Assembly: GCA_963712745.1 (NCBI GenBank)
Contig: CAVQJC010000017.1
Location: forward strand, 128,001-192,000
DNA: 64,000 nt
Direction of reading: 5' to 3'
Origin: an uncultured Chloroflexia bacterium
Lineage (GTDB): Bacteria > Chloroflexota > Limnocylindria > Limnocylindrales > CSP1-4
The translations under genes were made by a program, and so were the position numbers. The notes below the pieces were generated by a model. That model was given only the letters and a program-made list of their open reading frames with translations, was not told the origin of the DNA and did no database searches. Of the stretch, positions 30,739 to 45,679 are shown piece after piece; position 1 is the stretch's first letter, and every line of letters starts with the position of its first letter.

Positions 30739-30786
30739 TGGCGGCATCGTCTGCGAGTGCCGTAGACGCCCGCGAGAGAATCGTGT

Positions 30787-30867
30787 GCAGCGGGAGGCTG
30801 TGAAGTCCGGCTCGCGTACGTTGACCCGCCTGAGTCGCTTCGAGCCACTGGCGAACCCGACCCGCGC
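30787..30867 (+). ncRNA. c-di-GMP-II-like riboswitch (copy 1)
   Basis: GCGGGAGGC-TGTGAA..CCGCCTG..GAGCCACTGGCGAACCCGACCCGC; P1 GCGGG/CCCGC, pseudoknot CGCC/GGCG; 15 nt before ATG. Confidence 0.7.
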
Positions 30868-30881
30868 AGGAGGGGGAGGCC

Positions 30882-31739
30882 ATGCGATCCATGAGGTGGG
30901 TGCTGGCGGCGGTCGTAGCGCTGCTACTGACCGCGTCGTCCGTGCCCGGCCAGGCCGACGGCAACGAGGTCGAGTCCGGGGTCGAGCACGACCCGTTGTA
31001 CGAGGCGCTGGACGCCGAGTGCGCCAGGATCGCGAGACTCCCCTCTGGAAGGGCAGTCCAGGATGAAGGATTCCATCTGCTGGAGGGGCTGGACGCTGAG
31101 CGGAGTCACCTCGAGTGGCAGCTGGAGGGAGCCCGGAAGGCCCTTGCGGCGACGGGGCCAAGCGATGGTCAGCTTACCCCGTGGCAACGCACGGTGACCG
31201 AGGAGATCGAGGACTTCGAACAGCAGCTGGCGTTCATCCGGCTATCGCGCACGGTGATCGATGAATGCCTCGCAGGTCGCTACCAGGAGCTCGTTCGCCT
31301 TTGGGGCGCGGAGACCGAGCCGGGTACCCTTCGCGCTAGCTGGGACAAGGCCACCTGCACGGACACGCCCGGAGTCGAAGTGGCCAGGGCGGGCGCCCTG
31401 GACCTGACTCTCGGAGATGGCGGGGTTTCCGGGATCGTCCGCTGGATCTCGAAGCCAGAGCAGTCGGAGGAGGAAGCGGGCGCAGGGACCGCGGGCAGGG
31501 AGATCACCCTCGACGTCAGGGGGGCGTACGAGCATGATGGGACTATCCAGCTCATGCTGGCGAGACCCGAAGCACTGGACGAGTTCCGTTTGCGCGGGGA
31601 GGTCGAGTTCACTCCGATGGGCCTCAGGGGGAGTGGCGAGATCCGGTACGGGATCACGTTGGAAGGCTGCAACATCGGTCCGGACCCGGACGTGTGCGTG
31701 CACCAGGTCAGTTGTTCCGGACGGTGGACGAGTCAGTAG
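30882..31739 (+). CDS. secreted hypothetical protein
   Basis: GGAGG RBS, signal peptide MRWVLAAVVALLLTASS, several Cys. Confidence 0.7.
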   Translation: MRSMRWVLAAVVALLLTASSVPGQADGNEVESGVEHDPLYEALDAECARIARLPSGRAVQDEGFHLLEGLDAERSHLEWQLEGARKALAATGPSDGQLTPWQRTVTEEIEDFEQQLAFIRLSRTVIDECLAGRYQELVRLWGAETEPGTLRASWDKATCTDTPGVEVARAGALDLTLGDGGVSGIVRWISKPEQSEEEAGAGTAGREITLDVRGAYEHDGTIQLMLARPEALDEFRLRGEVEFTPMGLRGSGEIRYGITLEGCNIGPDPDVCVHQVSCSGRWTSQ

Positions 31740-31815
31740 CGGATGCTCCGCATGCCCGCGCTGCGCCTGTCGAGAGGCTGGCCGCAGCTCCGCGCCCCGG
31801 TCCCCAAGGAACATG

Positions 31816-31860
31816 GCCATGGCGGCGCCGACAAGAGATCTCCCTCTATTCATGGCGGTT
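31816..31860 (+). repeat. array core element copy 3 (degenerate)
   Basis: GCCATGGCGGCGCCGACAAGAGATCTCCCTCTATTCATGGCGGTT. Confidence 0.8.
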
Positions 31861-31901
31861 TGGCATCGCGGGTTGATGGACAGCCGCGAGAGAATCATGG
31901 G

Positions 31902-31979
31902 TAGCGGGAGGCAGCGAGACGCGGTCCACACCCTGGCCGCCTGGACCGCGCCGAGCCACTGGCGAACCCGGCCCGCCTA
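31902..31979 (+). ncRNA. c-di-GMP-II-like riboswitch (copy 2)
   Basis: GCGGGAGGCAGCGAGA-CGCGGTCC..GGCCGCCT-GGACCGCG-CCGAGCCACTGGCGAACCCGGCCCGC; perfect inner stem. Confidence 0.75.
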
Positions 31980-31995
31980 GCAGAGGGGGTAGGCG

Positions 31996-32442
31996 ATGCA
32001 GCACATGCGTGAAGAGGTACGAGTGGAGGCACCCGTCGAGCACGTCTGGAAGTTCTACTGCGACACATCGAACTGGCCTGACTTCATGCCACGGGCCAAG
32101 TGTTCGGATTTCAGCGGGCCGCTGGACAAGGTCGGGACGACGTACGTCGGGGGCATGCGGCTGATGGGCTACGAGTTCAAGACGACCTACGAGATAGTCG
32201 AGGTCGAGCCGCAGCGGCTCATCCACGAACACACCGACGACGGTCCCATGGACAACTACTGGCGGTTCGACTCCGACGGCGATGCGACCAAGGTCGTCAT
32301 CGAGTCCGACTACGAGATGCCGGGCAAGGTGCCGGGCTTCATCAAGGACCTCATGAGCAAAGCCTGGATCGAGCGGAACATGCGCCAGTCGCTGGCCGAC
32401 TTCAAGGCCCTCGCCGAGGCGAAGGTCCCGGCGCACGCCTAG
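31996..32442 (+). CDS. SRPBCC/polyketide cyclase-family protein
   Basis: VEAPVEHVWKF..NWPDFMP..LADFKALAE. Confidence 0.85.
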   Translation: MQHMREEVRVEAPVEHVWKFYCDTSNWPDFMPRAKCSDFSGPLDKVGTTYVGGMRLMGYEFKTTYEIVEVEPQRLIHEHTDDGPMDNYWRFDSDGDATKVVIESDYEMPGKVPGFIKDLMSKAWIERNMRQSLADFKALAEAKVPAHA

Positions 32443-32555
32443 CCTAGCCGCGGCTGCATGAGGCCCATCCATGAGGATGGGCCTCCCCTCGCACATGGGG
32501 GCGCGCGAGCGCCCCCGCCGGGCTCAGTCTTCGAGGCCGGAGGCTCAGCGGCGAT

Positions 32556-32600
32556 GCCATGGCTGCGACGACCAGACATCGCCCTCAATGCGTGGCGGTT
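32556..32600 (+). repeat. array core element copy 4 (degenerate)
   Basis: GCCATGGCTGCGACGACCAGACATCGCCCTCAATGCGTGGCGGTT. Confidence 0.8.
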
Positions 32601-32603
32601 CGG

Positions 32604-32750
32604 CTACTCCTCCTCGAACAGGAACACGATCGTCTCGGCGATGGTCAGCCAGTCATCGGCGGGCGGGCCGCCTGTCGTGCTGCACCAGAGCCACGTCGAT
32701 GACAGCACAGACGAAGTCGCCGTCGTACAGGTAGATCAGGGCGTCCGAAG
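32604..32750 (-). pseudogene. 3' remnant of a family-II cassette gene
   Basis: Translates WLWCSTTGGPPADDWLTIAETIVFLFEEE*; no start found. Confidence 0.65.
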
Positions 32751-32770
32751 TCGGCCCGCAGAGGGTCTGG

Positions 32771-33763
32771 TCACTCGATCGGGATCGAGAGGGGGGCGCC
32801 TTCCGCGTACAGCGTCGCCGCGAGGATCACCACCTCATCGTCGGTCGTGTTCGCCCCGAAGTGCTGAAGGTCTGGGTTCTCGACGATGCTGTCGCCGGTC
32901 TTGAGCGTGTACGTGGCCGGGCCGACGGGTTCGCTGGAGCCATCTGCGTGGATGATCGTGCCCTCACCCGAGATGATCGTGTACTCGAGCGCTCCGCGGA
33001 CGATGCGTGCGATCTGCCAGCCGGCATGCGTGTGCGGGGCCAGCTCCGCGCCGGCAGGGATGCGGTACTGCCACAGCCCCAGCTCCTCACCCGGGGCCGA
33101 GCTCGGTCGTGCGAGTCCCAGATCGGTGCGGGTGATACCGACCTCCTCGATGGCGGGTCCACCGGTCTCCACGACGGCCACGCCGGGTTCCGCATCGGAT
33201 CTCTTGCTGCTCTTGTCCTTCGTGTCCTTCTTGTCGAGCTTGATCTTCTTGCCATCAGAGAAGTAGAGCGCGTGCACCCAACTGTCGTCTGCGAGGTGCT
33301 CTGTCACAGCCGAGCCCGTGGCGCCGTAGAACTTGCCCGATCCGCCCAGGATCGGCCGAGTCGTGACGTTGCCGGTGGCGATGGTGGGGCCCTGGGCCGG
33401 GTAGAGGGCGCTGCCACCGACCACGACCTGATCCACGTCGCCATCGCCGAACGAGAAGACGAGGGTGCTGATGCGGATCTCGTCGCCTTGCGCCGGCACA
33501 TCCACCGCGGTCGTCGTCAGTGTCGCGTCGAGGCGGCCGATCACCTGGCCGTCCTCAGCGGTCGTCTCGGTCGAGGTGACCCGGAGGTCCCCCAACTGGT
33601 GACCATCAGACGCGGCATTCGTGAGCGTGACGACGACCGCGTCGTGGTAGACAGAGAGCGATTCCTTCTCACGTGCCGCGCTCACCGGGGCGGCCAGGAC
33701 GACGAGCAGCAGTAGGCTGGTCAGGAGCGCGGTGAAGTACAGAGGCTGGAAACGGCTGTGCAC
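32771..33763 (-). CDS. secreted two-domain protein (dirigent/AOC-like barrel + cupin)
   Basis: Signal peptide; GHQLGD..PILGGSGKFYGATG; Lys-rich linker; cupin PHTHAG..G....H. Confidence 0.7.
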   Translation of the reverse strand: MHSRFQPLYFTALLTSLLLLVVLAAPVSAAREKESLSVYHDAVVVTLTNAASDGHQLGDLRVTSTETTAEDGQVIGRLDATLTTTAVDVPAQGDEIRISTLVFSFGDGDVDQVVVGGSALYPAQGPTIATGNVTTRPILGGSGKFYGATGSAVTEHLADDSWVHALYFSDGKKIKLDKKDTKDKSSKRSDAEPGVAVVETGGPAIEEVGITRTDLGLARPSSAPGEELGLWQYRIPAGAELAPHTHAGWQIARIVRGALEYTIISGEGTIIHADGSSEPVGPATYTLKTGDSIVENPDLQHFGANTTDDEVVILAATLYAEGAPLSIPIE

Positions 33764-33937
33764 TGGCTGATCTCCGAAGTCGGTTGGATGACGGAGTGGC
33801 AATCATCGGGCAGCGACGGCCAGCGGGCAAGTCGCCGGGATAGGCTCGGAGTCCCCCGACCCGATGCCTCCTCGGTCTTCACCCTCCTCTCACGACCCAG
33901 CGGGTCGAGTGCCCCGCACATCGCCGGGACCCGCCCC

Positions 33938-35617
33938 CTACGCCCTGGCCAGCTTCTTGTAGCGGATGCGGTGCGGCTGGTCGGCCGCTGTCCCCAACTC
34001 CTTGCGCCGGAAGGCCTCGTAGTCGCTCACGTTCCCCTCGAAGAAGCGCACTTGGGAATCGCCCTCGAAGGCGAGGATGTGGGTCGCGATCCGGTCGAGG
34101 AACCAGCGGTCGTGGGAGATGACCACGACGCAGCCCGGGAACGACTCCAGGCCGGCCTCGAGCGCTCGCAGCGTGTCCACGTCGAGGTCGTTGGTCGGTT
34201 CGTCGAGCAGCAGCACGTTGCCACCCGTCTGCAGCAGCTTGGCGAGGTGCACCCGGTTCCGCTCGCCACCCGACAGTTGGCCGACGAGCTTCTGCTGGTC
34301 GGTGCCACGGAAGTTGAACGATGAGACATAGGCGCGGGCCGGGACCTCGCGTGCCCCGGTCTTGATGAACTCGGCACCCTGGGTGATCTCCCCGAATACC
34401 GTCTTGTCGGCGGCCAGGTCGTCGCGCTCCTGGTCGACATAGCTCAGCGCGACGGTGTCACCGATCGCGATCGACCCGGCGTCGGGTGCCTCCTGCCCGA
34501 CGAGCATCCGGAACAGCGTCGTCTTGCCGGCGCCGTTGGGTCCGATGATCCCGACGATGCCGGCCCGCGGCAGCGAGAACGTCAGGTCCTCGATGAGCAG
34601 CTTCTCGCGGTAGCCCTTGCGCAGGCCGGCGACATCGATGACCTTGTCACCGAGCCGCGGCCCCGGGGGGATGGCGATCTCGAGCTCGCGGGCGCTGGCC
34701 TTGTCGTCGTTCGCCTCGGCCAGGAGTCGCTCGTAGGCTGACAGTCGAGCCTTGCCCTTGGCCTGACGCGCCTTCGCACCCATGCGCACCCATTCGAGCT
34801 CGCGCGCGAGCGTCCGCTGCCGGGCATCGACCTGCTTCTGCTCGGTCGCCAGCCGCGCGAGCTTCTGCTCGAGCCAGCTCGAGTAGTTGCCACTGAACGG
34901 GATGCCGCGGCCCCGGTCGAGCTCAAGGATCCACTTGGCCACGTTGTCGAGGAAGTATCGATCATGGGTGATGGCGACGACGGTACCGGCGTATTCGGAC
35001 AGGAAGCGCTCCAGCCATTCGACCGACTCGGCATCGAGGTGGTTCGTCGGTTCGTCGAGCAGCAGCAGGTCCGGGTGGCGCATGAGCAGTCGTGCGAGCG
35101 CCACGCGGCGCTTCTCGCCGCCGGAGAGCGTCCTGACGTCGGCGTCGTCGGGCGGGCAACGGAGCGCGTCCATCGCGATGTCGACGTTGCGCTCGAGGTT
35201 CCACGCGTCCGCGGCTTCGATGCGGTCCTCGAGGACCGCCTGCTCGGCGCCGATCGCGTCGTAGTCGGCGTCGGGATCGGACCAGCGGGCCATGACCGCG
35301 TTGTACTGGTCGATGAGCGACTGGACCTCGCGGACGCCGTCGAGCACGTTGCCCTTGACGTCCTTCGCGGAGTCGAGCCCGGGCTCCTGCTCGAGGTATC
35401 CGACGGTGAAGCCCGGGGTCAGCCGAGCCTCGCCGTTGTAGCCGTCGTCGAGCCCGGCCATGATCTTGAGCAGGCTCGACTTGCCGGCGCCGTTGGGCCC
35501 GATGACCCCGATCTTGGCGCCGGGATAGAAGGACAGCGAGATGTCCTCCAGCACGGTCCGGTCGGGCGGATAGTGCCGGGCGAGCTTGTACGCGGTGTAG
35601 ATGAATTCGGCTGGCAT
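33938..35617 (-). CDS. ettA: energy-dependent translational throttle ABC-F protein EttA
   Basis: ISLSFYPGAKIGVIGPNGAGKS, ELEWVR..KARQAKGKARL, LSGGERNRVHLAK, PHRIRYKKL. Confidence 0.96.
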   Translation of the reverse strand: MPAEFIYTAYKLARHYPPDRTVLEDISLSFYPGAKIGVIGPNGAGKSSLLKIMAGLDDGYNGEARLTPGFTVGYLEQEPGLDSAKDVKGNVLDGVREVQSLIDQYNAVMARWSDPDADYDAIGAEQAVLEDRIEAADAWNLERNVDIAMDALRCPPDDADVRTLSGGEKRRVALARLLMRHPDLLLLDEPTNHLDAESVEWLERFLSEYAGTVVAITHDRYFLDNVAKWILELDRGRGIPFSGNYSSWLEQKLARLATEQKQVDARQRTLARELEWVRMGAKARQAKGKARLSAYERLLAEANDDKASARELEIAIPPGPRLGDKVIDVAGLRKGYREKLLIEDLTFSLPRAGIVGIIGPNGAGKTTLFRMLVGQEAPDAGSIAIGDTVALSYVDQERDDLAADKTVFGEITQGAEFIKTGAREVPARAYVSSFNFRGTDQQKLVGQLSGGERNRVHLAKLLQTGGNVLLLDEPTNDLDVDTLRALEAGLESFPGCVVVISHDRWFLDRIATHILAFEGDSQVRFFEGNVSDYEAFRRKELGTAADQPHRIRYKKLARA

Positions 35618-35699
35618 GAGGCTAGGGTAGCGACCCTCCGCGGGGCAGCGCCTCGGGCTCGGTCGACACGGACCGTGCGCGTCCTCAGCCCGCCTGGCT

Positions 35700-35739
35700 C
35701 ATCCTCCGCGCCCCGGCCATCGGGTCAAGCGCCGGACGG
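35700..35739 (-). promoter_or_regulatory. conserved minus-strand promoter module (upstream of ettA)
   Basis: TTGACC-N16-GAGGAT on the minus strand. Confidence 0.5.
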
Positions 35740-35755
35740 ACCTGGGTCCCGCCTG

Positions 35756-35800
35756 GCCATGGCGGCGACGACCAGACCAAACCCGCTATTCATTATGTTT
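35756..35800 (+). repeat. array core element copy 5 (right end diverged)
   Basis: GCCATGGCGGCGACGACCAGACCAAACCCGCTATTCATTATGTTT. Confidence 0.85.
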
Positions 35801-35840
35801 GCTGAAGCCAGCCGACCCCTGTGCTAGTCCTCGCTCGCGC

Positions 35841-36473
35841 CTACCCCTCGACGGGCAGGAACTCGAAGGTCTCGGCGATGGAGAGCCAGTCGGGGTTGGG
35901 AGCCTCCTCGCCACCACACGTGATGCCGTAGATCGTCGAGTCGTCCTGCAGCAGGAACTGCGTGCCCGCGAACGGTGTGGGTCAGTCTGGATCGACGAAG
36001 GTGTGATCGATGCGAACCGCCTCGCCCGCTGGAAGCGTCACGACGGTAACCGTCGCGCCGCCAGGGTATCGATCGTCGGCCTGGAGGCGGGCGACGTGCT
36101 CTGCCACCAGTGAGTCGAGTGGGACGATCGCAGCCATGACCTCGACCCCGCAGTAGCCTGGGACTTCCTGGGGGCCCACGTACGGCATCGCCAGGACGGG
36201 TGACTCCTCGCTGACGGCCTCGTAGAGCCAGCTGAGATCAGCGGCATAGGTCGAGTCGGTCACGTTGCTGAGCATCTCGCCTAGCGAGCCGGCATCGAGC
36301 CCAGACCGGCGGACCCAAGCCCAATCATCGGGAAACGCCAGCGCGAAGCCAGCACCGGGCACCTCCACTCGACCACCCAGGCCAACCGGTCCGGGCGACG
36401 GTTCCCGTGCCACCACCCCAGTCCCTAGTACTAGGACCAGCAGCCCTGCCAGCAGTCCGACTCGCTTGCCCAC
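35841..36473 (-). pseudogene. family-II secreted protein with in-frame TGA at 35982
   Basis: GKRVGLLAGLLVLVLG..GGRVEVPGAGFALAFPDDW..LPAGEAVR..DPD*PTPF..ITC..PDWLSIAETFEFLPVEG*, same frame on both sides of the stop. Confidence 0.75.
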
Positions 36474-36499
36474 CACGTCCCCCATCCTGCTTGTCGTCA

Positions 36500-36549
36500 C
36501 ATCCTCTGCACCCCGCTCAGCGGGTCAAGGGCCGGACGGCCCGGCGGCG
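36500..36549 (-). promoter_or_regulatory. conserved minus-strand promoter module
   Basis: CATCCTCTGCACCCCGCTCAGCGGGTCAAGGGCCGGACGGCCCGGCGGC. Confidence 0.55.
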
Positions 36550-36568
36550 TGACGGAGCTGGAGCGCGA

Positions 36569-36863
36569 TCAGTCCGGATCGAACGAAGCGGCGAGCGTCT
36601 GGAGCGCGGTTACCGCATCAGGGGCGTTGGAGGCCCGCCGATCACCGGACGGCCCCGAGGCCACGGCCTGCCACTCGCCGGATGGACGATCTCCCGAGCC
36701 ATCGGACGAGACGTAGTGCACGCCGGAACAGCACCCACCCATCAGGCAGCCGGTCCTCTGTTGCCAGCCAGGCGCTCGTCAGCCGATCGGGAACGGTCCC
36801 GTCTCGTCGGACCGTGGTCTGGCCGAACGCCGTCGCGACCGTCGCCAACTTCGCCCATACCAT
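36569..36863 (-). CDS. hypothetical protein (probable frameshift ~36725)
   Basis: MVWAKL..AWLATEDRLPDGWVL / GVHYVS..EWQAVASGPSG..ALQTLAASFDPD*; lies behind a promoter module. Confidence 0.35.
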
Positions 36864-36908
36864 CACGTCACCCCTGCCCGAGCGACCGGCACTCCCGGTC
36901 AGTACTCC

Positions 36909-36957
36909 CATAGTCCGCGCCTCGGTCAGCGGGTCAAGGGCCGGACGGCCCGGCGGC
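36909..36957 (-). promoter_or_regulatory. conserved minus-strand promoter module
   Basis: TTGACC-N16-GACTAT variant. Confidence 0.55.
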
Positions 36958-36964
36958 ATGCGTG

Positions 36965-37009
36965 GCCATGGCGGCGACGACGAGACCAAACCCGCTATAC
37001 ATGGCGATT
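36965..37009 (+). repeat. array core element copy 6
   Basis: GCCATGGCGGCGACGACGAGACCAAACCCGCTATACATGGCGATT. Confidence 0.9.
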
Positions 37010-37057
37010 CCGTGCGGCCCACTGGAGCTTCGTGGACGCCCGCGAGAGAATCGTCGT

Positions 37058-37134
37058 AGCGGGAGGCAATGACGCGCGGCCCCAGCCCTGGCCGCCTGGA
37101 CCGTGCCGAGTCACTGGCGGACCCGACCCGCGCT
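37058..37134 (+). ncRNA. c-di-GMP-II-like riboswitch (copy 3)
   Basis: GCGGGAGGCAATGA..GGCCGCCTGGACCGTGCCGAGTCACTGGCGGACCCGACCCGC. Confidence 0.75.
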
Positions 37135-37149
37135 TGTGAGGGGGATGTC

Positions 37150-38031
37150 ATGCGTACGTTGCGGCTGTCCCTGGTCGGGACGGTCATCGTGATGCTGCTC
37201 GGCGGGCTGGGCAGCACGGTGCTCGCGCACGATGAGATGCCTGGCGTCGGCGTCGAGGTCTTGGGCGACCTCGGCGCCATCCCAGGCGAGGCCATCCCCG
37301 AGGACGCCGTCCGTGTCGCGTTCGCTCGGACTAGCATCGAGCCGGGCGTGACCGGCGAGGTCGGCTCGGCCCAGCCCCATGAATGGGCCAGCCTGGAATG
37401 CGTCCAGCACGGTTCGCTCACGTTCACGGACAGCGACCGGACAGTGATCTGGCGGGTGGGCGAAACGACCGAGGACCTCCCCGCTGGGACGACCGCCAGC
37501 GTGAACACCGGGGATCTCGTGCTCTTCTATGACGGCGGGGCCGGGAGGAGTTTCGCGAACGCGGGGCCCGAGACGTACGTGACGTACTCCGTGGCGGTCG
37601 GCGACAGTGATGACCCGGCGGAGCCACCGGTCCTGCCCCCCGGCGTCTCCTGGCGGCTCCTCGTCTTCGACGTGCTGGCACCCGAGACCGTGGATCTCTG
37701 GTTCACGACACCGGTCGCGGTGGCGTTCGAGCGACTCGCGTTCTACCCCGGCGGCCAGCTCGTGCTTGGGTCTGACGAGGCCGGGTTGCTGCGCCTCCTG
37801 GCGCTCGAAGAAGGTCGCCTGGAGAGCGGCTTCGCGGCCCCATCCGAGGTCGCCGGGGCGCTGACCGACTCGGTCAGGTTCATCGCGCCCGACGCCGACA
37901 TTCTCACGTCGGGATCATTCGCGGACGACACGGTCTACGTGATCCGAAACGAGTCGGACGAGCCTGCGATTGTCCTGAGCGCCACGCTGACGCATGTTGA
38001 TGGGACCACGGAGGCCAAGCCCGCCGAGTAA
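37150..38031 (+). CDS. secreted protein, probable bicupin fold
   Basis: Signal peptide MRTLRLSLVGTVIVMLLGGL; two cupin-like halves (RTSIEPG..VQHGSLTF..N.GPE; RLAFYPG..EEGRL..RNESDEPA). Confidence 0.7.
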   Translation: MRTLRLSLVGTVIVMLLGGLGSTVLAHDEMPGVGVEVLGDLGAIPGEAIPEDAVRVAFARTSIEPGVTGEVGSAQPHEWASLECVQHGSLTFTDSDRTVIWRVGETTEDLPAGTTASVNTGDLVLFYDGGAGRSFANAGPETYVTYSVAVGDSDDPAEPPVLPPGVSWRLLVFDVLAPETVDLWFTTPVAVAFERLAFYPGGQLVLGSDEAGLLRLLALEEGRLESGFAAPSEVAGALTDSVRFIAPDADILTSGSFADDTVYVIRNESDEPAIVLSATLTHVDGTTEAKPAE

Positions 38032-38068
38032 CCCCATCGCGCCGCCTCGGCTGCCTGCCGCCCTGCCC

Positions 38069-38107
38069 CATCCTCCGCGCCCCGCTCAGCCGGTCAAGGG
38101 CCGGACT
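38069..38107 (-). promoter_or_regulatory. conserved minus-strand promoter module (orphan, faces the end of a + gene)
   Basis: CATCCTCCGCGCCCCGCTCAGCCGGTCAAGGGCCGGAC. Confidence 0.5.
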
Positions 38108-38201
38108 GACTGGTGGCATGGGTGGCGGCAGGCTACCCGGCATCACGTGGTCCCTTCGGCACTGTCGGTCCGAGTGGACACCTCGGTATCGTCGAGCCGC
38201 C

Positions 38202-38516
38202 ATGGCGGACCCGCTGGAGCCTGACACGCGGCCGGACGAGCCGCACATCACAAACCCATCGATGCGCGAGGCGGAAGAGCCGGACCTAGCGCGCGTGGCC
38301 GAGGAGTGGAGGCGAGAGACACGCCAAGCGAAGGACCAGCGGAACGCCGAAACCGAGGAGTGGCTGAAGGCGTTCGAGGCCAAGCATGAGAACCCGAGGG
38401 ACACCTTCCTCGGGCTGCTACTGCATGGTTGCTGTTGGTGGTCCCTCATGAGAATGGCGTGCGCCACCCTGCTGGTCGTGTTCGTCGCAGCTTGGGCCCG
38501 GCGTGCGAGGGGGTAG
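38202..38516 (+). CDS. small hypothetical protein with C-terminal TM
   Basis: Charged N-terminus, hydrophobic C-terminus; ends just before core copy 7. Confidence 0.45.
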   Translation: MADPLEPDTRPDEPHITNPSMREAEEPDLARVAEEWRRETRQAKDQRNAETEEWLKAFEAKHENPRDTFLGLLLHGCCWWSLMRMACATLLVVFVAAWARRARG

Positions 38517-38545
38517 CACCTCATCGCGCCGCCTCGGCTACCTGC

Positions 38546-38590
38546 GCCATGGCGGCGATGACCAGACATAACCCGCTATTCATGGCGATT
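38546..38590 (+). repeat. array core element copy 7
   Basis: GCCATGGCGGCGATGACCAGACATAACCCGCTATTCATGGCGATT. Confidence 0.92.
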
Positions 38591-38609
38591 CTGGAGTAGT
38601 GGTCAGTGG

Positions 38610-39791
38610 CTAGCCCGCCTCGGCGGGCAGGAACTCGAACGAGTCGGCGATGGAGAGCCAGCGGTCGTCGAAGCCGTGGTAGCCAAAGCAGCCAATCAGA
38701 GCTTCGGGGCCGTCGGTAGCGAGAGCGGTCTCGAAATCGATCAAGAACGTCGAGTTGTACGTCGCCCTGCCGGTGTCCGCTCGGGTGACGTAGTCGATGC
38801 GGTGAGACGGGCCGGCCGGCAGCATCAGCTCCGACACGGTCGGCCCCTCGGCCAGCCCAGGGTCGCCTCTCGCGTGATCGAGTGCGCCGGCGAGGACGTC
38901 ATCGAGCGAGCTGCCGACGGGCAGATCCGTGGATTGGACCAGGCACGTCGTGGCCGGCCACCCATCGGGCTCGACCGGTCCGAACACCAGGGCGTGGAAC
39001 GCGTACCCCTGGTCCGACAGCGCGCTCAGTTGCTCCAGCATCGTCGCGGTCGTATCGACCCAGCGCGGATGTGTCTGACGGACGAGGTCAAGGTTCTCCT
39101 CCGCGCTTGCCTCGTTCGGGTCAAGGATGACCCAGTCGTCCGGAAAGGTCAGTGCAAATCCTGGAGCGATAGCCTCCAGGCGACCGCCCATGCCGGCCGT
39201 GTCGCGGGGGCGGAGCCACTCGAGTGACTCGGCGATAGCGCGCCACCTATCCGGGGTCGGATGCGGACCTTCACACGTGAGGATGACGCTCCAGGCATCA
39301 CCGCCGATCATGAAGCCCTCGCGGTAGAGCGCCACCTCGTCCGTGTCTGGCGGCACGACCTGCCATCGATAAGTGACGGCGGGGCCGGCCGGGAGCTCGG
39401 TCTGCGAAATGCCCTCGTACGCATGGACACTGGGCTCTGCCCTGATGGCCGCATCCAGCCCTCCGTAGAACCCCGGGTCGAGGACCTCTTCTCCGTCCCA
39501 CGGGACCACGTCCAGATCGCAAGCGTCGCCCGATGGCGACATCAGGAAGAGTTCTGACTCAGTCTCCTCATCGAGCAGGCCGACCTGCGCGCCGGCGGCC
39601 TGCAACTGGGCGTCGAGTTCCACGGTGAGGTCGAAGGCGATCCAATCGGTCGGGATCGATACGGCGATGCCGTGCCTGGGCATCTCCACGCGCCCACCGA
39701 ACCACGGTGGAGGCTGCGACTCTGACGCCACCACCCCAGACCCCAACGACAGAACCATCAGTAGCGCCAGCAACCCGACTCGCCTGCCCAT
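38610..39791 (-). CDS. family-II secreted protein, tandem domain
   Basis: Signal peptide; GGRVE..P.DW..LPAGP..LTC..DRW..IAES twice; ends DRWLSIADSFEFLPAEAG. Confidence 0.8.
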   Translation of the reverse strand: MGRRVGLLALLMVLSLGSGVVASESQPPPWFGGRVEMPRHGIAVSIPTDWIAFDLTVELDAQLQAAGAQVGLLDEETESELFLMSPSGDACDLDVVPWDGEEVLDPGFYGGLDAAIRAEPSVHAYEGISQTELPAGPAVTYRWQVVPPDTDEVALYREGFMIGGDAWSVILTCEGPHPTPDRWRAIAESLEWLRPRDTAGMGGRLEAIAPGFALTFPDDWVILDPNEASAEENLDLVRQTHPRWVDTTATMLEQLSALSDQGYAFHALVFGPVEPDGWPATTCLVQSTDLPVGSSLDDVLAGALDHARGDPGLAEGPTVSELMLPAGPSHRIDYVTRADTGRATYNSTFLIDFETALATDGPEALIGCFGYHGFDDRWLSIADSFEFLPAEAG

Positions 39792-39799
39792 AACGTCTC

Positions 39800-39846
39800 C
39801 ATCCTCCGCGCCCCGCGCCGCGGGTCAAGGGCCGGACGGCCCGACG
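39800..39846 (-). promoter_or_regulatory. conserved minus-strand promoter module
   Basis: TTGACC-N16-GAGGAT a few nt before ATG 39791. Confidence 0.55.
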
Positions 39847-39891
39847 GCCATGGCGGCGACGACCAGACCAAACCCGCTATTCATGGCGATT
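39847..39891 (+). repeat. array core element copy 8
   Basis: GCCATGGCGGCGACGACCAGACCAAACCCGCTATTCATGGCGATT. Confidence 0.92.
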
Positions 39892-39960
39892 TCGGAGTCG
39901 CGTTCGCGCCAGCGTGCTGACTGCGTTGGTGACCCCTCACGCTTGGCCTGATGCCCGCGC

Positions 39961-40350
39961 TCAGCGGTAGCCGAGGACGAGCGTTAAGAACAACAACAGG
40001 ATGACGAAGAAGCTCACGGCGGCGAGGACGAAGCTCACGAGACCGACGATCAACCACGCCCCGAGGCCATGGAGCCCCATTCGACGACCGGTCCCGAGGA
40101 TCACCAGCGGGACCAGGATCAGCCCAAGTAGCCCCAACCCGAGCCCGAGGTCGATACCTGCCGCTGAGTCCACCACGGCACCGACTCCGGAGAGCAGGAA
40201 CCAGGCGCCGATGAGCGTAGCCGTGGCCAGGACAGTGGTCGCCGATGCTGCCTTGGAGCGGTCCCGGAGCGCGTTGTACAGCCCCTCGCCCACCCAGCCG
40301 TACAGCCTCAAGTCATCACTCACGGCACCGCTCCCCGCGATGGTCTGCAT
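39961..40350 (-). CDS. small membrane protein (3 TM)
   Basis: Hydrophobic ORF between core copies, behind a promoter module. Confidence 0.6.
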   Translation of the reverse strand: MQTIAGSGAVSDDLRLYGWVGEGLYNALRDRSKAASATTVLATATLIGAWFLLSGVGAVVDSAAGIDLGLGLGLLGLILVPLVILGTGRRMGLHGLGAWLIVGLVSFVLAAVSFFVILLLFLTLVLGYR

Positions 40351-40380
40351 CGCGATCAGGTTTGTGCCCGACCATCCGCC

Positions 40381-40420
40381 CATCCTCCGCGCACCGGCCA
40401 GTGGGTCAAGGGCCGGACGG
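40381..40420 (-). promoter_or_regulatory. conserved minus-strand promoter module
   Basis: CATCCTCCGCGCACCGGCCAGTGGGTCAAGGGCCGGACGG. Confidence 0.55.
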
Positions 40421-40428
40421 CATGCATC

Positions 40429-40473
40429 GCCATGGCGGCGACGATCAGACATAATCAGCTGTACATGGCGATT
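40429..40473 (+). repeat. array core element copy 9
   Basis: GCCATGGCGGCGACGATCAGACATAATCAGCTGTACATGGCGATT. Confidence 0.9.
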
Positions 40474-40522
40474 CTCGATTGGCGCTCGAGAGCCGATGGA
40501 CGCCCGCGAGAGAATCGCAGGT

Positions 40523-40593
40523 AGCGGGAGGCGATGAGACGCGGCCGAGCAATGTCCGCCTGGACCGCCCGAGCCACTGGCCAACCCGGCCCG
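40523..40593 (+). ncRNA. c-di-GMP-II-like riboswitch (copy 4, partly degenerate)
   Basis: GCGGGAGGCGATGA..CCGCCTGGACCGCCCGAGCCACTGGCCAACCCGGCCCG; one pseudoknot pair broken. Confidence 0.6.
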
Positions 40594-40613
40594 AGGATGA
40601 GAGGGGGGACTTC

Positions 40614-41150
40614 ATGCGCACGTTGCGGCCGTCACTGGCGGCGATCATCATCTTGGTGCTGGCCATGACATCGGGCAGCGCGGTCTTGGCCCAGTCGGAC
40701 GACGCGCCTGCCGCCTGGGTCGAAGCGACGAGCATCGCGCATCCCTGCGTCGGACTCGGGGAACCCGAGGAGTACATCGAGGAGACGCACGTGACCCGTC
40801 TCCGAGGCTCGGCTCTCGACTGCAGCATGGACCTTGGCGACGCCCGCCTGAAGGGCACTGCGGATATGAGCTGGAACTACGACTGCTACGACGCGGTCGG
40901 GGCCGGCTGCGTGCGTTGGGGCTCCGTGGTGCTGACTGGGCCCGATGGCACATGGGAGGGTACGTTCAGCGGCGTAGAGAGCCCCGCAGGGTCCGGTGCT
41001 TCCTTCTCTGCTGAGTACATCGAGCTCGCGGGCAGGGGTGCCTACGATGGGCTTGCGTACGTGGGTCAGGCAGCCAACCAGTTCAGCACTTCTGGACGGT
41101 GGTTCGGCATCGTGTACGAAGGCGAGTTGCCGTCTCCGTCCGCCGAGTAG
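40614..41150 (+). CDS. family-I secreted protein
   Basis: MRTLRPSL signal peptide; DARLKG..G.W.G..LAGRGAYDGL..GIVYEGELP. Confidence 0.8.
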   Translation: MRTLRPSLAAIIILVLAMTSGSAVLAQSDDAPAAWVEATSIAHPCVGLGEPEEYIEETHVTRLRGSALDCSMDLGDARLKGTADMSWNYDCYDAVGAGCVRWGSVVLTGPDGTWEGTFSGVESPAGSGASFSAEYIELAGRGAYDGLAYVGQAANQFSTSGRWFGIVYEGELPSPSAE

Positions 41151-41198
41151 TCGCATCGCGTCGCCTCGGCTGCTTGCGGCTCAGGATCGGCGTGCATA

Positions 41199-41243
41199 GC
41201 CACGGCGGCGACGACCAGACCAAACCCGCTATACATGGCGATT
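41199..41243 (+). repeat. array core element copy 10
   Basis: GCCACGGCGGCGACGACCAGACCAAACCCGCTATACATGGCGATT. Confidence 0.92.
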
Positions 41244-41260
41244 CCTGTTAGCGAGTCGGG

Positions 41261-42394
41261 TCAGGTCGGCAGTTCGGCCAGCACGTCCTCGATGGCCATC
41301 CCACCGCTGCCACTGACGATGAACAGGACACCGCGAACGGTATACATGAACGACCACGTCGAACCGTCATCCGCCTCCTCCGCGTCATCCGTCCAGACGG
41401 TACGTTCACCGTAGGTCCGAGTCGGCCACTCCGAGAGCGGCGGGGTCACAGAGGTGCCCATCTCGCTGCGCATGATCTGTACCAGTTGCTCCATCACGAC
41501 TACGGGCGGGACTCCAGCAACTCGGATGGCCTCAACGACGTACTGCTCCGGCACCGACCGGTCAGCCGTACGCGCATGTGCCACCTGCAGGTCCCTGAAC
41601 TCCTGTCCGAGGTCGGAGATCAAGCGTCGGAACAACCGGCGAGCGTCTTCCTCGGTCAGCACCAGAGACGAGCTGCTCTCGACGGACAGCGGAGTATCGC
41701 CGATCACGTGCGGCAGCAGGGAGATCACCTGGTCGGACGGGAGCGGCAGGGTCTCGACGGTCTCGGCGATGGAGAGCCAGTCGTCGTCGGGGCGTTGGAA
41801 AGCTGAGCACGTCATCGTCAAGATGTCGCCGCCGACGTCGATCAGATACATCGTGACGGGGCCCCAGACGTCACGGTCGTAGGCATTCTGGGCGGTCGCT
41901 CGAAGTACCAGACCGGGACCGGTCGGCACGTCCACCGGCATCGGCGGGTCGGCATCCACCATCGACTCCGCGTCCACCATCGTCTGGTACAGACCTTCGG
42001 CGAAGGCATCGAGCCGCCAGCCTTCCCCGAGCCTTGGATAGAACAAGCAGCTCTCCGTCTCCGCGAGGGAGCACACTGAGGACGAGAGGTCCATACCCAA
42101 TAGCGGGAAGGATCCCTCAGCGGCCAAGAGCGAGAGGTTCATGTGCAGGCACGAGAGCCCAGCTGCAGTCAGTCCACCATCAGGCGAGTCCATGGCGCGG
42201 ACCTGTGAGTCGATGTCGGCGCCAGGGTCGAACGCCACCCAGCCCTCGGGGAGGGTGACCGCGAAGCCGTACTCAGCGATCTCCACGCGCCCGCCCATCC
42301 ACGGCGGAGGCGAGGCATCCTCCGCCCGCGCGGACCCGAATACAGTCGCCAGCAGACTGACCACAAGCAGCGCCACGCTCGCCAGCTGTCGCAT
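41261..42394 (-). CDS. secreted fusion protein: family-II + family-III domains
   Basis: GGRVE..GFAVTLPEGW..DDWLSIAETVE then LLPHVIGD..EAIRVAG..IEDVLAELP. Confidence 0.8.
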   Translation of the reverse strand: MRQLASVALLVVSLLATVFGSARAEDASPPPWMGGRVEIAEYGFAVTLPEGWVAFDPGADIDSQVRAMDSPDGGLTAAGLSCLHMNLSLLAAEGSFPLLGMDLSSSVCSLAETESCLFYPRLGEGWRLDAFAEGLYQTMVDAESMVDADPPMPVDVPTGPGLVLRATAQNAYDRDVWGPVTMYLIDVGGDILTMTCSAFQRPDDDWLSIAETVETLPLPSDQVISLLPHVIGDTPLSVESSSSLVLTEEDARRLFRRLISDLGQEFRDLQVAHARTADRSVPEQYVVEAIRVAGVPPVVVMEQLVQIMRSEMGTSVTPPLSEWPTRTYGERTVWTDDAEEADDGSTWSFMYTVRGVLFIVSGSGGMAIEDVLAELPT

Positions 42395-42417
42395 TCTCGT
42401 ACCTGTGCGGATGCCCT

Positions 42418-42464
42418 CATCCTCCGCGCCCCGCTCAGCGGGTCAAGGGCCGGACGGCCCGGCG
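42418..42464 (-). promoter_or_regulatory. conserved minus-strand promoter module
   Basis: CATCCTCCGCGCCCCGCTCAGCGGGTCAAGGGCCGGACGGCCCGGCG. Confidence 0.55.
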
Positions 42465-42509
42465 TCCATGGCGGCGACGACCAGACATAACCCGCTATAC
42501 ATGGCGATT
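42465..42509 (+). repeat. array core element copy 11
   Basis: TCCATGGCGGCGACGACCAGACATAACCCGCTATACATGGCGATT. Confidence 0.92.
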
Positions 42510-42530
42510 CGTACCGTCCGCTCGGCCGAG

Positions 42531-43136
42531 CTACGCTCCGGCGGGCAGGAACTCGAAGGTCGCGGCGATGGACAGCCAGTCATCCTCGGGTGCTCCTCGC
42601 GAACAGCCGAGGAAGTACCACCGGTGTCCATCACCGAAGAGGTACATAGCGTATCGGTCAGCGGTCTCCAGCGACGCCCAGTCGGGGTACCCGCCGGGCT
42701 CGCCCCAGAAGTTCGCGTCTGAGGGCACCAGGTCCATGGTGACCCGTCCGACGCGTCCAGCCGGCAGGTCGATGACCGCGCCGGTGACGTTCCTGGCGGC
42801 GAGACTGTCGTCCCATCGCGAGACCAACGCATCGAGCCAGTCGTCAATCGACTCGACCGGCAGGACCGGCTCAACGACGGACGAGTCAAAGACCTCACAG
42901 TAGCCACCCGGCCCCGAGGAGGTCAGGCCCGGCAAGTACGGGGGGTGATCCAGCATCCCAATGACCTCCCACCCGTCGGGGAAGGCGATGGCGATTCCCA
43001 GATCCGGGAAGGTCCGGATGGTGGCGGCAGGCTGCCCCGTCACCTCCGGGCTCGCCGACGGTGACTGCGCCGTGATGGCGCTCGACGTCGTGGCTAGGAG
43101 ACACGCCACCGCAACCGAGATGATGAGCCGTCGCAT
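42531..43136 (-). CDS. family-II secreted protein
   Basis: Signal peptide; GIAIAFPDGW..LPAGRVGR..LGC..DDWLSIAATFEFLPAGA. Confidence 0.8.
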   Translation of the reverse strand: MRRLIISVAVACLLATTSSAITAQSPSASPEVTGQPAATIRTFPDLGIAIAFPDGWEVIGMLDHPPYLPGLTSSGPGGYCEVFDSSVVEPVLPVESIDDWLDALVSRWDDSLAARNVTGAVIDLPAGRVGRVTMDLVPSDANFWGEPGGYPDWASLETADRYAMYLFGDGHRWYFLGCSRGAPEDDWLSIAATFEFLPAGA

Positions 43137-43161
43137 GATCGACTCCCGTGCGCGATGCCCC

Positions 43162-43210
43162 CATCCTCTCCGCCCCGCTCAGTGGGTCAAGGGCCGGACG
43201 GCCCGGCGGC
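43162..43210 (-). promoter_or_regulatory. conserved minus-strand promoter module
   Basis: CATCCTCTCCGCCCCGCTCAGTGGGTCAAGGGCCGGACGGCCCGGCGGC. Confidence 0.55.
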
Positions 43211-43218
43211 GTGCCATC

Positions 43219-43265
43219 GCCATGTACGGGCGATGACCAGACCAAACCCGCTATTCATGGCGATT
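43219..43265 (+). repeat. array core element copy 12
   Basis: GCCATGTACGGGCGATGACCAGACCAAACCCGCTATTCATGGCGATT. Confidence 0.9.
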
Positions 43266-43377
43266 CTCGCTTGGGGCGGAGTTCGCAGCAACGGCTCGTG
43301 GGACGCCTGCGCCTCGAGAATCGTCTACCTGGTACAGGCGGGATCGACTCGTCAGCGTGAGAATCGAGGGAGAGACC

Positions 43378-43899
43378 ATGGGAACGATCAGGATCGGCAT
43401 CATCACGCTCCTCACCATCGGCCAGCTGGCGGGCTCAGCGGTCAGTGTCGCAGCGCAGGACGATGAAGCCGTCGTCGTGAGCGGGGGCATGAGTCCGATT
43501 GGCGGCGCGAGCGTGCCGTGCGAGCTGGAGGAGGATTTCACCGAACTCGACGACGGCACGGCCAGCTGGACCTGGTGCTTCGGTCTCGTGATGGACGATC
43601 CACGGCTCACCGGCGACGGCTCCGTCGTCATGGCTGAGCGGGCGTACGACGGCTTCGGCCTGATCTCCTCGAGGGTGGAGATAGCCAACGAAGGAGGGTC
43701 GTGGTCGGGCAACGGCACCAGGGTCTTCATCGACGGAGATCCGGGGATCGATATCGAGCAACTCGTACTCACCGGGGCCGGTGGATATGGCGGCCTGACG
43801 GCCATCCTCTATGCCGATCCGGAGTTCGGCTTCCGCGGATTGGACTCGTGGAACGGCGTCATCATCTCGGGCGAGATGCCAGGACTACCTGCCGAGTAG
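43378..43899 (+). CDS. family-I secreted protein
   Basis: Signal peptide; DDPRLTG..GGSWSG..LTGAGGYGGL..GVIISGEMP. Confidence 0.8.
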   Translation: MGTIRIGIITLLTIGQLAGSAVSVAAQDDEAVVVSGGMSPIGGASVPCELEEDFTELDDGTASWTWCFGLVMDDPRLTGDGSVVMAERAYDGFGLISSRVEIANEGGSWSGNGTRVFIDGDPGIDIEQLVLTGAGGYGGLTAILYADPEFGFRGLDSWNGVIISGEMPGLPAE

Positions 43900-43905
43900 A
43901 CCCCT

Positions 43906-43957
43906 CGCGCCACCTCCGCCTCGGCGGGCAGGAACTCGAAGGTCTCGGCGATGGAGG
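43906..43957 (-). pseudogene. short 3'-end remnant of a family-II gene
   Basis: Encodes SIAETFEFLPAE immediately after the stop codon of the 43958 gene. Confidence 0.6.
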
Positions 43958-44557
43958 CTATGGCAGTTCGGCCAGCACGTCCTCGATGGTCGGTTCGGTC
44001 GGTGCGTCGGGGTCAGAGCCAACGCGACCAAGCCGCACTCTGAACAGGACCTCGCCCTTCGGGTAGAGGTACTCGATGAAGCGGTCGTCGGCGCCATCGA
44101 AGGTAACGACCACGACGCGGCGGTCACCGATGTCCTGCCAGTCCATAGCGGCCACTGGCAGTTGGTCGGCGACAGCTTGGGACTCGCGTCGCAACCCCTC
44201 GAACACGCCTGCCCAGAAGTCTGCCGCCTGAGCACCCACGATGCGTGTCGCCTCGATACTCAGGAACCGGTCTCCTTCCGGGTGAACTCCATAGCCGCCT
44301 GCGGCTCTGACATCCTCCGGCTCCAGTCCGAGTGGCACCAAGACATCACGCCAGCCTGCGGTCCACTCCGCATCGGCGGAAGAGACAGCCGAGAAGTCCA
44401 GGATGGACAGGTCGATGTCCCCGACCTGTGACGGGATGATGGACGCCAAGTCATCGGGTGCGAACGGCGGCGTGGCCTCCGCTGACGGCGACTGAGCCAA
44501 CGCCCCAGACCCCAGCGACAGAACCATCAGCCCTGCCAATAGCCCGGCTCGCTTCAC
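43958..44557 (-). CDS. family-III secreted protein
   Basis: KRAGLLAGLMVLSLGSG signal peptide; IIPSQVGD..EATRIVG..IEDVLAELP. Confidence 0.78.
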   Translation of the reverse strand: MKRAGLLAGLMVLSLGSGALAQSPSAEATPPFAPDDLASIIPSQVGDIDLSILDFSAVSSADAEWTAGWRDVLVPLGLEPEDVRAAGGYGVHPEGDRFLSIEATRIVGAQAADFWAGVFEGLRRESQAVADQLPVAAMDWQDIGDRRVVVVTFDGADDRFIEYLYPKGEVLFRVRLGRVGSDPDAPTEPTIEDVLAELP

Positions 44558-44584
44558 GGCTCCACCCCTCCTGCGGATGCCGCT

Positions 44585-44633
44585 CATCCTCCGCGCCCCG
44601 AGCCCCGGGTCAAGGGCCGGACGGCCCGGCGGC
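44585..44633 (-). promoter_or_regulatory. conserved minus-strand promoter module
   Basis: CATCCTCCGCGCCCCGAGCCCCGGGTCAAGGGCCGGACGGCCCGGCGGC. Confidence 0.55.
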
Positions 44634-44640
44634 ACGCTCA

Positions 44641-44685
44641 GCCCTGGCGGCGACGACCAGACATAACCCGGTATTCATGGCGATT
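44641..44685 (+). repeat. array core element copy 13
   Basis: GCCCTGGCGGCGACGACCAGACATAACCCGGTATTCATGGCGATT. Confidence 0.9.
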
Positions 44686-44733
44686 CCGTGCGGCCCACTG
44701 GAGCCTCGTGGACGCCCGCGAGAGAATCGTCGT

Positions 44734-44810
44734 AGCGGGAGGCAAAGACGCGCGGCCCCAGCCCTGGCCGCCTGGACCGTGCCGAGTCACTGGCGGACCC
44801 GACCCGCGCT
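44734..44810 (+). ncRNA. c-di-GMP-II-like riboswitch (copy 5)
   Basis: Identical to copy 3 except AATGA>AAAGA. Confidence 0.7.
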
Positions 44811-44825
44811 TGTGAGGGGGATGTC

Positions 44826-45359
44826 ATGCGTACGTTGCGGCTGTCCCTGGTCGGGACGGTCATCGTGATGCTGCTCGGCGGGCTGGCTGGAGCGGTGCTT
44901 GGCGCAGGACGAGGAGGAAGCGCCCGTATGGGTGACCCTCCTCGCGCAGGAGAACTGCCGGATGGAGGCGGACCCCGGCACCTACGAGCCAGGCGCAGGA
45001 CGCGCCAAGAAGATCCGCGACCTGCCCCTCGCTTGCGACCTCACCTACAGCGATGCCCGCCTTAGCGGGCCGAGCCACATGCTCTACAACGAGGACTGCT
45101 TCGAGTCGGGCATCTGCGTCGGGTGGGGGACCATCGGATCGACGGCTCCGACGGATCGTGGACCGGGTGGTGGCACGAGATCGACGACGAGGACGACGAT
45201 ACGAGCTTCCACATCGTGCTGACCGGCGACGGCGGTTACGAGGGACTCACCGCCATCATCTACTCACTCGGGGTCTGGGAAACGTTCCCCGACGAGTACG
45301 GTGTCATCTACCGGGGCGATCCGCCGCCAGGTCCCGAGGTGCTGTTGACTGCTGAGTAG
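44826..45359 (+). CDS. family-I secreted protein with two compensating frameshifts (~44900, ~45131)
   Basis: MRTLRLSLVG.. / AQDEE..SDARLSG..YNEDC / DGSWTG..LTGDGGYEGL..GVIYRGDPP. Confidence 0.7.
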
Positions 45360-45586
45360 CAGATCACCAGGCGACCGCGCCACGCTCACCGCCGCGAGCG
45401 AGATCCATACAGGGATAGACACCGATACGACGGTCATCTACCCCTGCTCGAGCTGAGCCGCACCGACATCGACCCCACGGCGCCCTGAGAACAGCACCGC
45501 CACCCTGGAGCAGCACTTCCCGCTGCCGCGTTCATGACCTCCGCCTCTTGAACCGAGCGGTACTGCTGTGGCCTCATACCCATCTG

Positions 45587-45663
45587 AGCGGGAGGCGATG
45601 AGGCACGGCCCACACCCTGGCCGCTGGGACCGCGTCCGAGCCACTGGCGAAACCGGCCCGCGC
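45587..45663 (+). ncRNA. c-di-GMP-II-like riboswitch (copy 6)
   Basis: GCGGGAGGCGATGA..GGCCGCTGGGACCGCGTCCGAGCCACTGGCGAAACCGGCCCGC. Confidence 0.7.
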
Positions 45664-45679
45664 AGCAAAGGGGGATGTC

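Follow-up and report, generated by a model that had tools for sequence, protein, structure and literature searches.

The stretch of DNA analysed here, 64,000 nucleotides from an uncultured Chloroflexia bacterium (contig CAVQJC010000017.1 of assembly GCA_963712745.1; the whole stretch is referred to as the window), has a G+C content of 68% and contains a repeat island in which six RNA leaders span about 15 kb. The leaders are aptamers related to the class II riboswitches for cyclic dimeric guanosine monophosphate (c-di-GMP-II; Rfam clan CL00127). All of them lie on the + strand, and each is placed and oriented correctly ahead of an open reading frame (ORF), which we call its cargo. Their best-matching Rfam models are the variant families RF03170 and RF03169, with gathering cut-offs of 47.9 and 40 bits, respectively. 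Pocket nucleotides are numbered as in the parent structure 3Q3Z, and copies are referred to by number or by first position. The aptamers and their cargo are the following.

30784..30871, + strand: aptamer copy 1; RF03169 at 36.1 bits (E 8e-4, below the cut-off of 40), own covariance model at 64.1 bits; A69, C70 and G73, with a longer P3 loop
30882..31739, + strand: cargo 1, 285 residues, signal-peptide-like N-terminus, no family match
31898..31982, + strand: aptamer copy 2; RF03170 at 64.4 bits, own model at 86 bits; A69, C70 and G73
31996..32442, + strand: cargo 2, a 148-residue SRPBCC protein (Polyketide_cyc2; PF10604, E 4.6e-17) with no signal peptide
37053..37137, + strand: aptamer copy 3; RF03170 at 58.2 bits, own model at 84.1 bits; G68, A69, C70 and G73
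37150..38031, + strand: cargo 3, a secreted protein of 293 residues, cupin-like as a lead only, with no Pfam or NCBIfam match
40518..40600, + strand: aptamer copy 4; RF03170 at 35.6 bits (E 4e-3, below the cut-off of 47.9), own model at 61.9 bits; A69, C70 and G73; one pseudoknot pair is broken by a C at the position of G67, and one P3 pair is absent
40614..41150, + strand: cargo 4, a 178-residue secreted protein of an unnamed family
44729..44813, + strand: aptamer copy 5; RF03170 at 57.0 bits; a near-identical duplicate of copy 3
44826..45360, + strand: cargo 5, a cargo-4 relative with the signal peptide of cargo 3, broken by frameshifts
45582..45667, + strand: aptamer copy 6; RF03169 at 56.1 bits, own model at 82.5 bits; A69, A70 and G73
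45680..46579, + strand: cargo 6, a 299-residue secreted esterase (BD-FAE, alpha-beta hydrolase; PF20434, E 1.4e-41)

At gathering cut-offs, an Rfam cmscan of the whole window lists four of the six leaders, all on the + strand, and a cmscan of the 28-48 kb region under an E-value threshold recovers the remaining two, both under their curated cut-offs. We also trained a custom covariance model on the six window copies plus another ten taken from other genomes. With filtering disabled and both strands of the 64 kb searched, this model gives six matches only, scoring 61.9-86 bits; the next-best score is 15 bits (E 0.34), more than 45 bits below the six. The leaders are real, far beyond chance, and the window has no further copies. 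An earlier note on this DNA, written from the letters alone, had claimed six + strand leaders of the c-di-GMP-II type, and they are indeed present: the CL00127 variant models match every one of them, in four cases above the cut-offs, the custom model finds all six, and the starts given there agree with ours to about 5 nucleotides. The consensus string proposed in that note turned out to be roughly right. Its (A/G)TGA element, though, reads AGCGA in copy 31898 and AAAGA in copy 44729, GGCG is GGCC in copy 40518, and copy 45582 departs from the string with CCGCTGG and AAACCG.

We scanned a collection of species-representative genomes using a degenerate pattern built from the two best-conserved blocks and obtained at least 106 further stretches (L001-L106). 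Among the stretches listed, 100 of 106 are labelled as metagenome-assembled genomes (MAGs) of Chloroflexota (Chloroflexia, Chloroflexi/Chloroflexota, Candidatus Limnocylindria/-ales and one Dehalococcoidia), and the six bearing other phylum names may represent binning errors. The family is abundant in MAGs of this phylum: our model finds at least 141 copies outside the window, 129 in L001-L099 and 12 in L100-L106; given the pattern-seeded sample, these counts are lower bounds and not frequencies. Clustering is usual among the stretches listed, with five copies in 8 kb in L030 and four in L103, and one related MAG, represented by four 8-kb stretches (L020, L030, L033 and L103), has at least 12. 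The best match of the window among the stretches listed is 89% over 347 nucleotides.

Structural conservation was assessed in an alignment (A3) of 135 copies, 129 from L001-L099 and the six of the window. In this alignment, 83.0% of cells pair, compared with 79.0% in shuffles (none of 500 reaches the observed value) and 29-46% with slid partners, figures that are favoured by the alignment having been fitted to the model. Changes on both sides are seen in 16 of the 26 pairs. Double changes affect all eight P3 pairs and 8 of the 11 P1 pairs, and compensatory P3 changes distinguish even the six window copies from each other. The P1-P2-P3 junction of the c-di-GMP-II fold is thus backed by covariation. 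The same cannot be said of the pseudoknot between the P3 loop and the 3' tail, which the earlier note had described as covaried from CACU/AGUG to CGCC/GGCG. Its four pairs are formable in 98.3% of cells and invariant in 129-134 of the 135 copies, and hence provide no evidence of covariation; for P2 and the pseudoknot alike, invariance means no covariation support either way. One P3 position (A3 columns 33/64) is a C-A mismatch in 75 of the 135 copies and mostly U-A or C-G otherwise. Conserved inside a covarying helix, this mismatch may represent a tertiary contact.

In the parent pocket, A69 reads one guanine of the ligand via its sugar edge, A70 intercalates between both bases and G73 reads the other guanine, while the first P2 pair, A14-U60, forms a side wall against the ligand backbone and the adenine after the last P2 nucleotide serves as the ceiling (PMC13715770). 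From the numbering offset in that paper we infer that the ceiling adenine is A61, right after U60. We mapped the pocket positions in our copies by spacing from the last P2 nucleotide and by the family names, and not by alignment to the parent. Counted in this way, every window copy has A at +1 and at +9 and G at +13, while +10 (position 70) is C in five and A in one (45582). The Rfam consensus at positions 69, 70 and 73 is G-C-G for RF03170 and G-A-G for RF03169, in agreement with the family names GCG and GAG, which appear to denote just these three nucleotides.

None of the window copies carries the consensus triplet of its best-matching family. Nucleotide 69 is A in all six, and the cmscan midline is blank at that column every time. 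The four copies that match RF03170 best read A69-C70-G73 instead of G-C-G, and of the two that match RF03169, with its G-A-G, copy 45582 reads A, A, G and copy 30784 reads A, C, G. The parent set is not complete either: six of six have the ceiling A together with A69 and G73, one of six has A70 and none has the A-U first P2 pair. With the positions mapped in this way, copy 45582 combines the parent reading triplet with a variant scaffold. Across the 135 copies, A61 is found in 135 and G73 in 133. The states at 69/70 are GA in 68 copies, AC in 40, AA in 15, GC in 10, TA in one and AG in one. Since the named states (GA and GC) account for only 78 of the 135, the A69 states make up a large unnamed part of this branch.

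Leaders of homologous genes are found in different states. For SRPBCC genes the window leader is A-C, that of L047 (66% protein identity) A-A and that of L003 (58%) G-A; for the esterase, the window leader is A-A where L030 (50% protein identity) has A-C. Overall, SRPBCC genes are found behind all four states and methyltransferases behind G-A and A-C. Different states at homologous genes fit one shared physiology, but are silent on whether the ligand is the same. As a separate observation, nucleotide 69 correlates with a P3-loop pyrimidine (A3 columns 89/49) in the manner of a Watson-Crick pair, the combinations being A-U in 49, G-C in 46, G-U in 17 and others in 23 of the 135 copies. These two nucleotides are out of register with the pseudoknot helix, and shared ancestry is a possible cause of the link; a tree-aware test with an 85-nucleotide tree counted 1 independent pair on supported branches.

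The earlier note had also proposed that the leader is portable, and here our results provide direct support. The 44729 unit and the 37053 unit differ by two mismatches in about 212 nucleotides (99%) and then diverge completely. The matched run extends from the end of the R half of the island repeat (described below) across promoter, aptamer and signal peptide, and the body of the gene that follows at 44729 belongs to the 40614 family. Such near-identity in front of a different gene body means that a block of promoter, aptamer and signal peptide was copied onto other cargo. Repeat D6 (36909-37208 versus 44585-44884, 94% identity) carries copies 3 and 5. The esterase and the cupin-like protein, in turn, are alike solely over residues 1-32 (66% identity). 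The promoter-aptamer-signal-peptide block is thus copied between unrelated cargo.

As for the cargo itself, the six genes encode mostly secreted proteins, the SRPBCC protein being cytoplasmic. The cupin-like label of cargo 3 comes from an Atlas feature score of 0.94 to clusters carrying Cupin_2 and is a lead only. Homologues of cargo 4 are found behind aptamers in L044, L029, L047, L055, L020 and L043. In three-frame translation, cargo 5 needs frame changes near 44900 and near 45150 to be read through, and is therefore either a pseudogene or an assembly error; its segment 44899-45222 matches cargo 4 in blastp with 30% over 87 residues. The 'family-I' proteins that the earlier note listed as cargo do not belong here if the paralogous minus-strand family of the island was meant: its genes are without aptamers and hence are not leader cargo. 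Across the sample, the 130 downstream ORFs include eight SRPBCC proteins, six methyltransferases, five SnoaL-like proteins and two BD-FAE esterases, as well as collagen-like and beta-helix proteins, and the majority are without a family. Signal-peptide-like starts are seen in 71 of these 130 by a crude test, with some of the ORF calls wrong. Cargo that is diverse and largely secreted is what would be expected of a signal rather than of a metabolite.

Upstream of the leaders we found the following promoter-like blocks.

30763..30783, + strand: promoter-like motif (T/A)GAC, 7 nucleotides, GAGAAT, before copy 1; a conserved block in the leader alignment
31877-31895, 37034-37053, 40498-40517 and 44710-44729, + strand: the same (T/A)GAC-7 nucleotides-GAGAAT motif, before copies 2-5
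45548..45577, + strand: sigma-70-like promoter candidate TTGAAC, about 18 nucleotides, CCTCAT, before copy 6

In the five window leaders that have it, the (T/A)GAC-GAGAAT block stops about 8 nucleotides before the conserved AGCGGGAGGC, and the same motif precedes many A69-type copies in other genomes. The block upstream of copy 6 is common to leaders in L053, L041, L024, L043, L083, L012, L055 and L001, and G-A copies elsewhere often have TCGCCA, 17 nucleotides and TACGGT upstream. These blocks are probably promoters from which transcription would begin at the base of P1. At the other end, the ATG lies 10-13 nucleotides past the end of the model and about 18 nucleotides past the P1 strand CCCGC, with a GGGGG ribosome site 1-8 nucleotides past P1. 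Terminator-like sites number three in 18 kb, with 4.0 expected, and none is at any leader, so that transcription termination was rejected as the expression platform. With the aptamer just after a promoter-like motif, the ATG 10-13 nucleotides on and no terminator, control is probably translational.

To look for the direction of such control we folded the leaders; plain thermodynamic folding gave no clear switch structure. When folding of 107 leaders was constrained, the ribosome site opened by more than 0.1 with the aptamer in 34 and closed by more than 0.1 in 11. Mean openness of the ribosome site with the aptamer enforced and with its 5' half blocked was 0.50 and 0.44 for A-C, 0.46 and 0.40 for A-A, 0.43 and 0.38 for G-A, and 0.35 and 0.37 for G-C leaders. 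These modelled values give a weak hint of an on-switch, which agrees with the class II riboswitches of Clostridioides difficile, but are no evidence by themselves. The groups also differ in what follows the aptamer. Within 30 nucleotides downstream, GTCCC is found in 25 of 66 G-A, 4 of 15 A-A and none of 40 A-C copies, and a GGGGG ribosome site in 18 of the 40 A-C copies. In G-A leaders, GTCCC sits just before a GGAGG ribosome site and is pairable with GGGAGGC on the 5' side of the aptamer. As GTCCC can pair with the aptamer in this way, the G-A and A-C groups may use different platforms.

Taken together, these results make it reasonably probable that the leaders, which have the c-di-GMP-II fold, sense a cyclic dinucleotide and control translation. 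Each aptamer would form the extreme 5' end of a separate short transcript, where the upstream promoter would place it; the ligand would most likely be c-di-GMP or a close cyclic-dinucleotide relative; and the aptamer would control the translation start of the next gene, ligand binding probably turning that gene on. The promoter, the aptamer, the ribosome site and the signal peptide behave as one unit that recombination would shift between the cargo genes of the island. Among known systems, RF03170 and RF03169 are the best models over the full length of the copies, with the same helices, the same CGCC/GGCG sequences for the pseudoknot and the same joining strands, and the host is similar, going by the Chloroflexota MAG labels of other copies; the differences are A69 in six of six window copies where the consensus has G69, and the two copies under curated cut-offs. 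With the parent c-di-GMP-II riboswitch (3Q3Z, PMC13715770) the window copies share the three-helix junction with a predicted pseudoknot, the ceiling A, A69 and G73 in all six and A70 in copy 45582. They differ from it in having a G-C first P2 pair, C70 in five copies and another pseudoknot sequence, and in their host phylum, high G+C content and lack of a terminator platform. In C. difficile, class II c-di-GMP riboswitches are on-switches before surface proteins, which resembles the leaders before secreted proteins described here.

A number of observations weigh against this interpretation. Some concern the structure: only the inner five P1 pairs are conserved, the outer six being unpaired in about half of the cells, and in the window P1 has just 5 base pairs (GCGGG/CCCGC). 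P2 (three pairs) and the pseudoknot (four pairs, CGCC with GGCG) are without covariation, and copy 40518 may be impaired because one of its pseudoknot pairs is broken. The ribosome site changes little in 62 of the 107 leaders folded under constraints, which makes an on-switch a tentative assignment. Neither did we find GGDEF, EAL, HD-GYP or CD-NTase proteins among the window ORFs scanned. Other points bear on the ligand. It is the variants, and not the parent, that are the best-matching Rfam families; the parent model is never the best clan match for the window copies, its scores being concealed by the clan filter. The first P2 pair, A-U in the parent, is G-C in six of six window copies and 129 of 135 overall, and the position of the intercalating adenine is occupied by C in five window copies and in 50 of the 135.

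These points on the ligand favour an alternative in which the fold and the riboswitch logic are the same, but the ligand is not a cyclic dinucleotide known to bind such a fold. Candidates would be a different signal derived from nucleotides, or a dinucleotide that is linear or has another linkage and is restricted to the lineage. In the literature searched, no ligand is reported for RF03169 or RF03170, which three papers name, in model lists only, and no paper pairs the name of this Chloroflexota lineage with 'riboswitch'. The paper defining the variants reportedly set them apart for a possibly changed ligand, and other signalling molecules are said to have been proposed. Nevertheless, we regard a ligand of such a different kind as somewhat unlikely. 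The ligand-reading A61, A69 and G73 of the parent are retained in all six window copies, and the occurrence of A69 or G69 and A70 or C70 leaders at homologous genes fits one shared physiology. Moreover, an engineered relative whose side-wall pair was changed from A-U to G-C still bound both isomers of cyclic GMP-AMP with nanomolar affinity (PMC13715770).

It is also conceivable that the leaders do not sense a small molecule at all and are structured 5' regions acting as a protein site, a stabiliser or a translation enhancer for mRNAs of secreted proteins. Co-inheritance of the leader with the coding start for the signal peptide and the absence of a clear alternative structure in our folding would agree with this. 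However, cargo without a signal peptide is served as well (SRPBCC, methyltransferase and SnoaL proteins), the nucleotides lining the pocket are almost invariant, and homology is clear to a fold whose sole known role is ligand sensing, all of which makes this explanation improbable. Still less credence can be given to the idea that the six copies are functionless, passive products of recent duplication in a repeat-rich island. Although copy 5 nearly duplicates copy 3, one of the cargo genes is broken and copy 40518 is degenerate, this idea is disfavoured to the point of being highly improbable: the six copies have compensatory P3 changes among them, every one is correctly placed and oriented before an ORF, and the structure is kept in at least 141 further copies of other genomes.

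Within the preferred interpretation, namely cyclic-dinucleotide-sensing leaders, one may go a step further, although we consider this extension unlikely as a whole. The Chloroflexota branch might comprise four or more states of the pocket (G69-A70, G69-C70, A69-C70 and A69-A70) that replace one another in the leaders of homologous genes and possibly read more than one cyclic dinucleotide, with the recombining promoter-aptamer-signal-peptide block wiring fast-evolving secreted proteins to those signals. The window would then hold one parent-type sensor (45582) and five A69-C70 sensors. To the ligand-orphan Rfam families already known, the present results add the pocket states with A69, the copying of the leader block and the island of repeats. 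The window and its relatives provide natural material for a ligand search, as they contain near-isogenic leaders that differ at 69/70 before homologous genes, including one leader in which the parent triplet is restored. The density of leaders is also unusual: 15 kb of the window hold six copies, and the four 8-kb stretches of the related MAG hold at least 12, whereas C. difficile 630 has been termed exceptional for 16 c-di-GMP riboswitches genome-wide. If the ligand is c-di-GMP, these leaders would give a first view of the targets of that signal in a widespread uncultured lineage of soil and freshwater.

All six leaders reside in a single region that is delimited by repeats.

29926..47948, + strand: island with all six leaders and 17 full or partial copies of a 110-nucleotide two-part repeat in one orientation

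The repeat corresponds to families D1-D5 and D7 of our repeat search, and nhmmer matches to it in the window are confined to 29926-47948 on the + strand. It consists of a left (L) and a right (R) half with a spacer between them that varies in length; either half is also found on its own. R is at the left edge of every unit regardless of gene strand, and the right edge of units is either L or a 22-nucleotide block past the stop codon of + strand genes. The R half contains two direct CATGGCG words about 33 nucleotides apart. The repeat is also present in L029, L030, L044 and L056, and L030 has two of the units in the opposite order to the window, the esterase unit preceding the cupin-like unit.

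We considered several identities for this repeat. As a structured RNA it has no Rfam match other than a spurious microRNA (E 3.2), and a 7-base-pair pairing of its halves, which shows one compensatory change, is broken in several copies and absent in lone halves. Nor, by our tests, can it be read as an integron attC site, as there is no recombinase among 52 window ORFs, there are no inverted repeats, and single-strand folding of the repeat does not surpass that of shuffled sequences (z between -0.34 and +1.43). The island does resemble an integron array in its one-orientation repeats of about 110 nucleotides, spaced 0.6-3.3 kb apart, among small, diverse and mostly unnamed genes, and in a unit order that varies between related genomes. 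It differs in having genes on both strands, no integrase and a repeat that splits into lone halves. We regard the island as a recombining paralogue island.

The island also holds six members of a paralogous secreted family on the minus strand (35982-36500, 38610-39791, 41261-42394, 42531-43136, 43958-44635 and 46866-47975), with conserved N- and C-terminal ends and internal repeats. The family has no Pfam or NCBIfam match, and none of its members has an aptamer; a weak Atlas lead to PsbP-like proteins, with fewer than 170 shared features, is a lead only. A short remnant of a family C-terminus is found at 32603-32663. Other genes lie within or next to the island. Between two repeat copies, 32771-35617 on the minus strand holds a cupin-domain gene and a double ATPase of the ABC-F type. 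Finally, the right edge of the island is directly adjoined by a pair of neighbouring genes from the aspartate/ornithine carbamoyltransferase family (48021-48998 and 49009-49965, minus strand).

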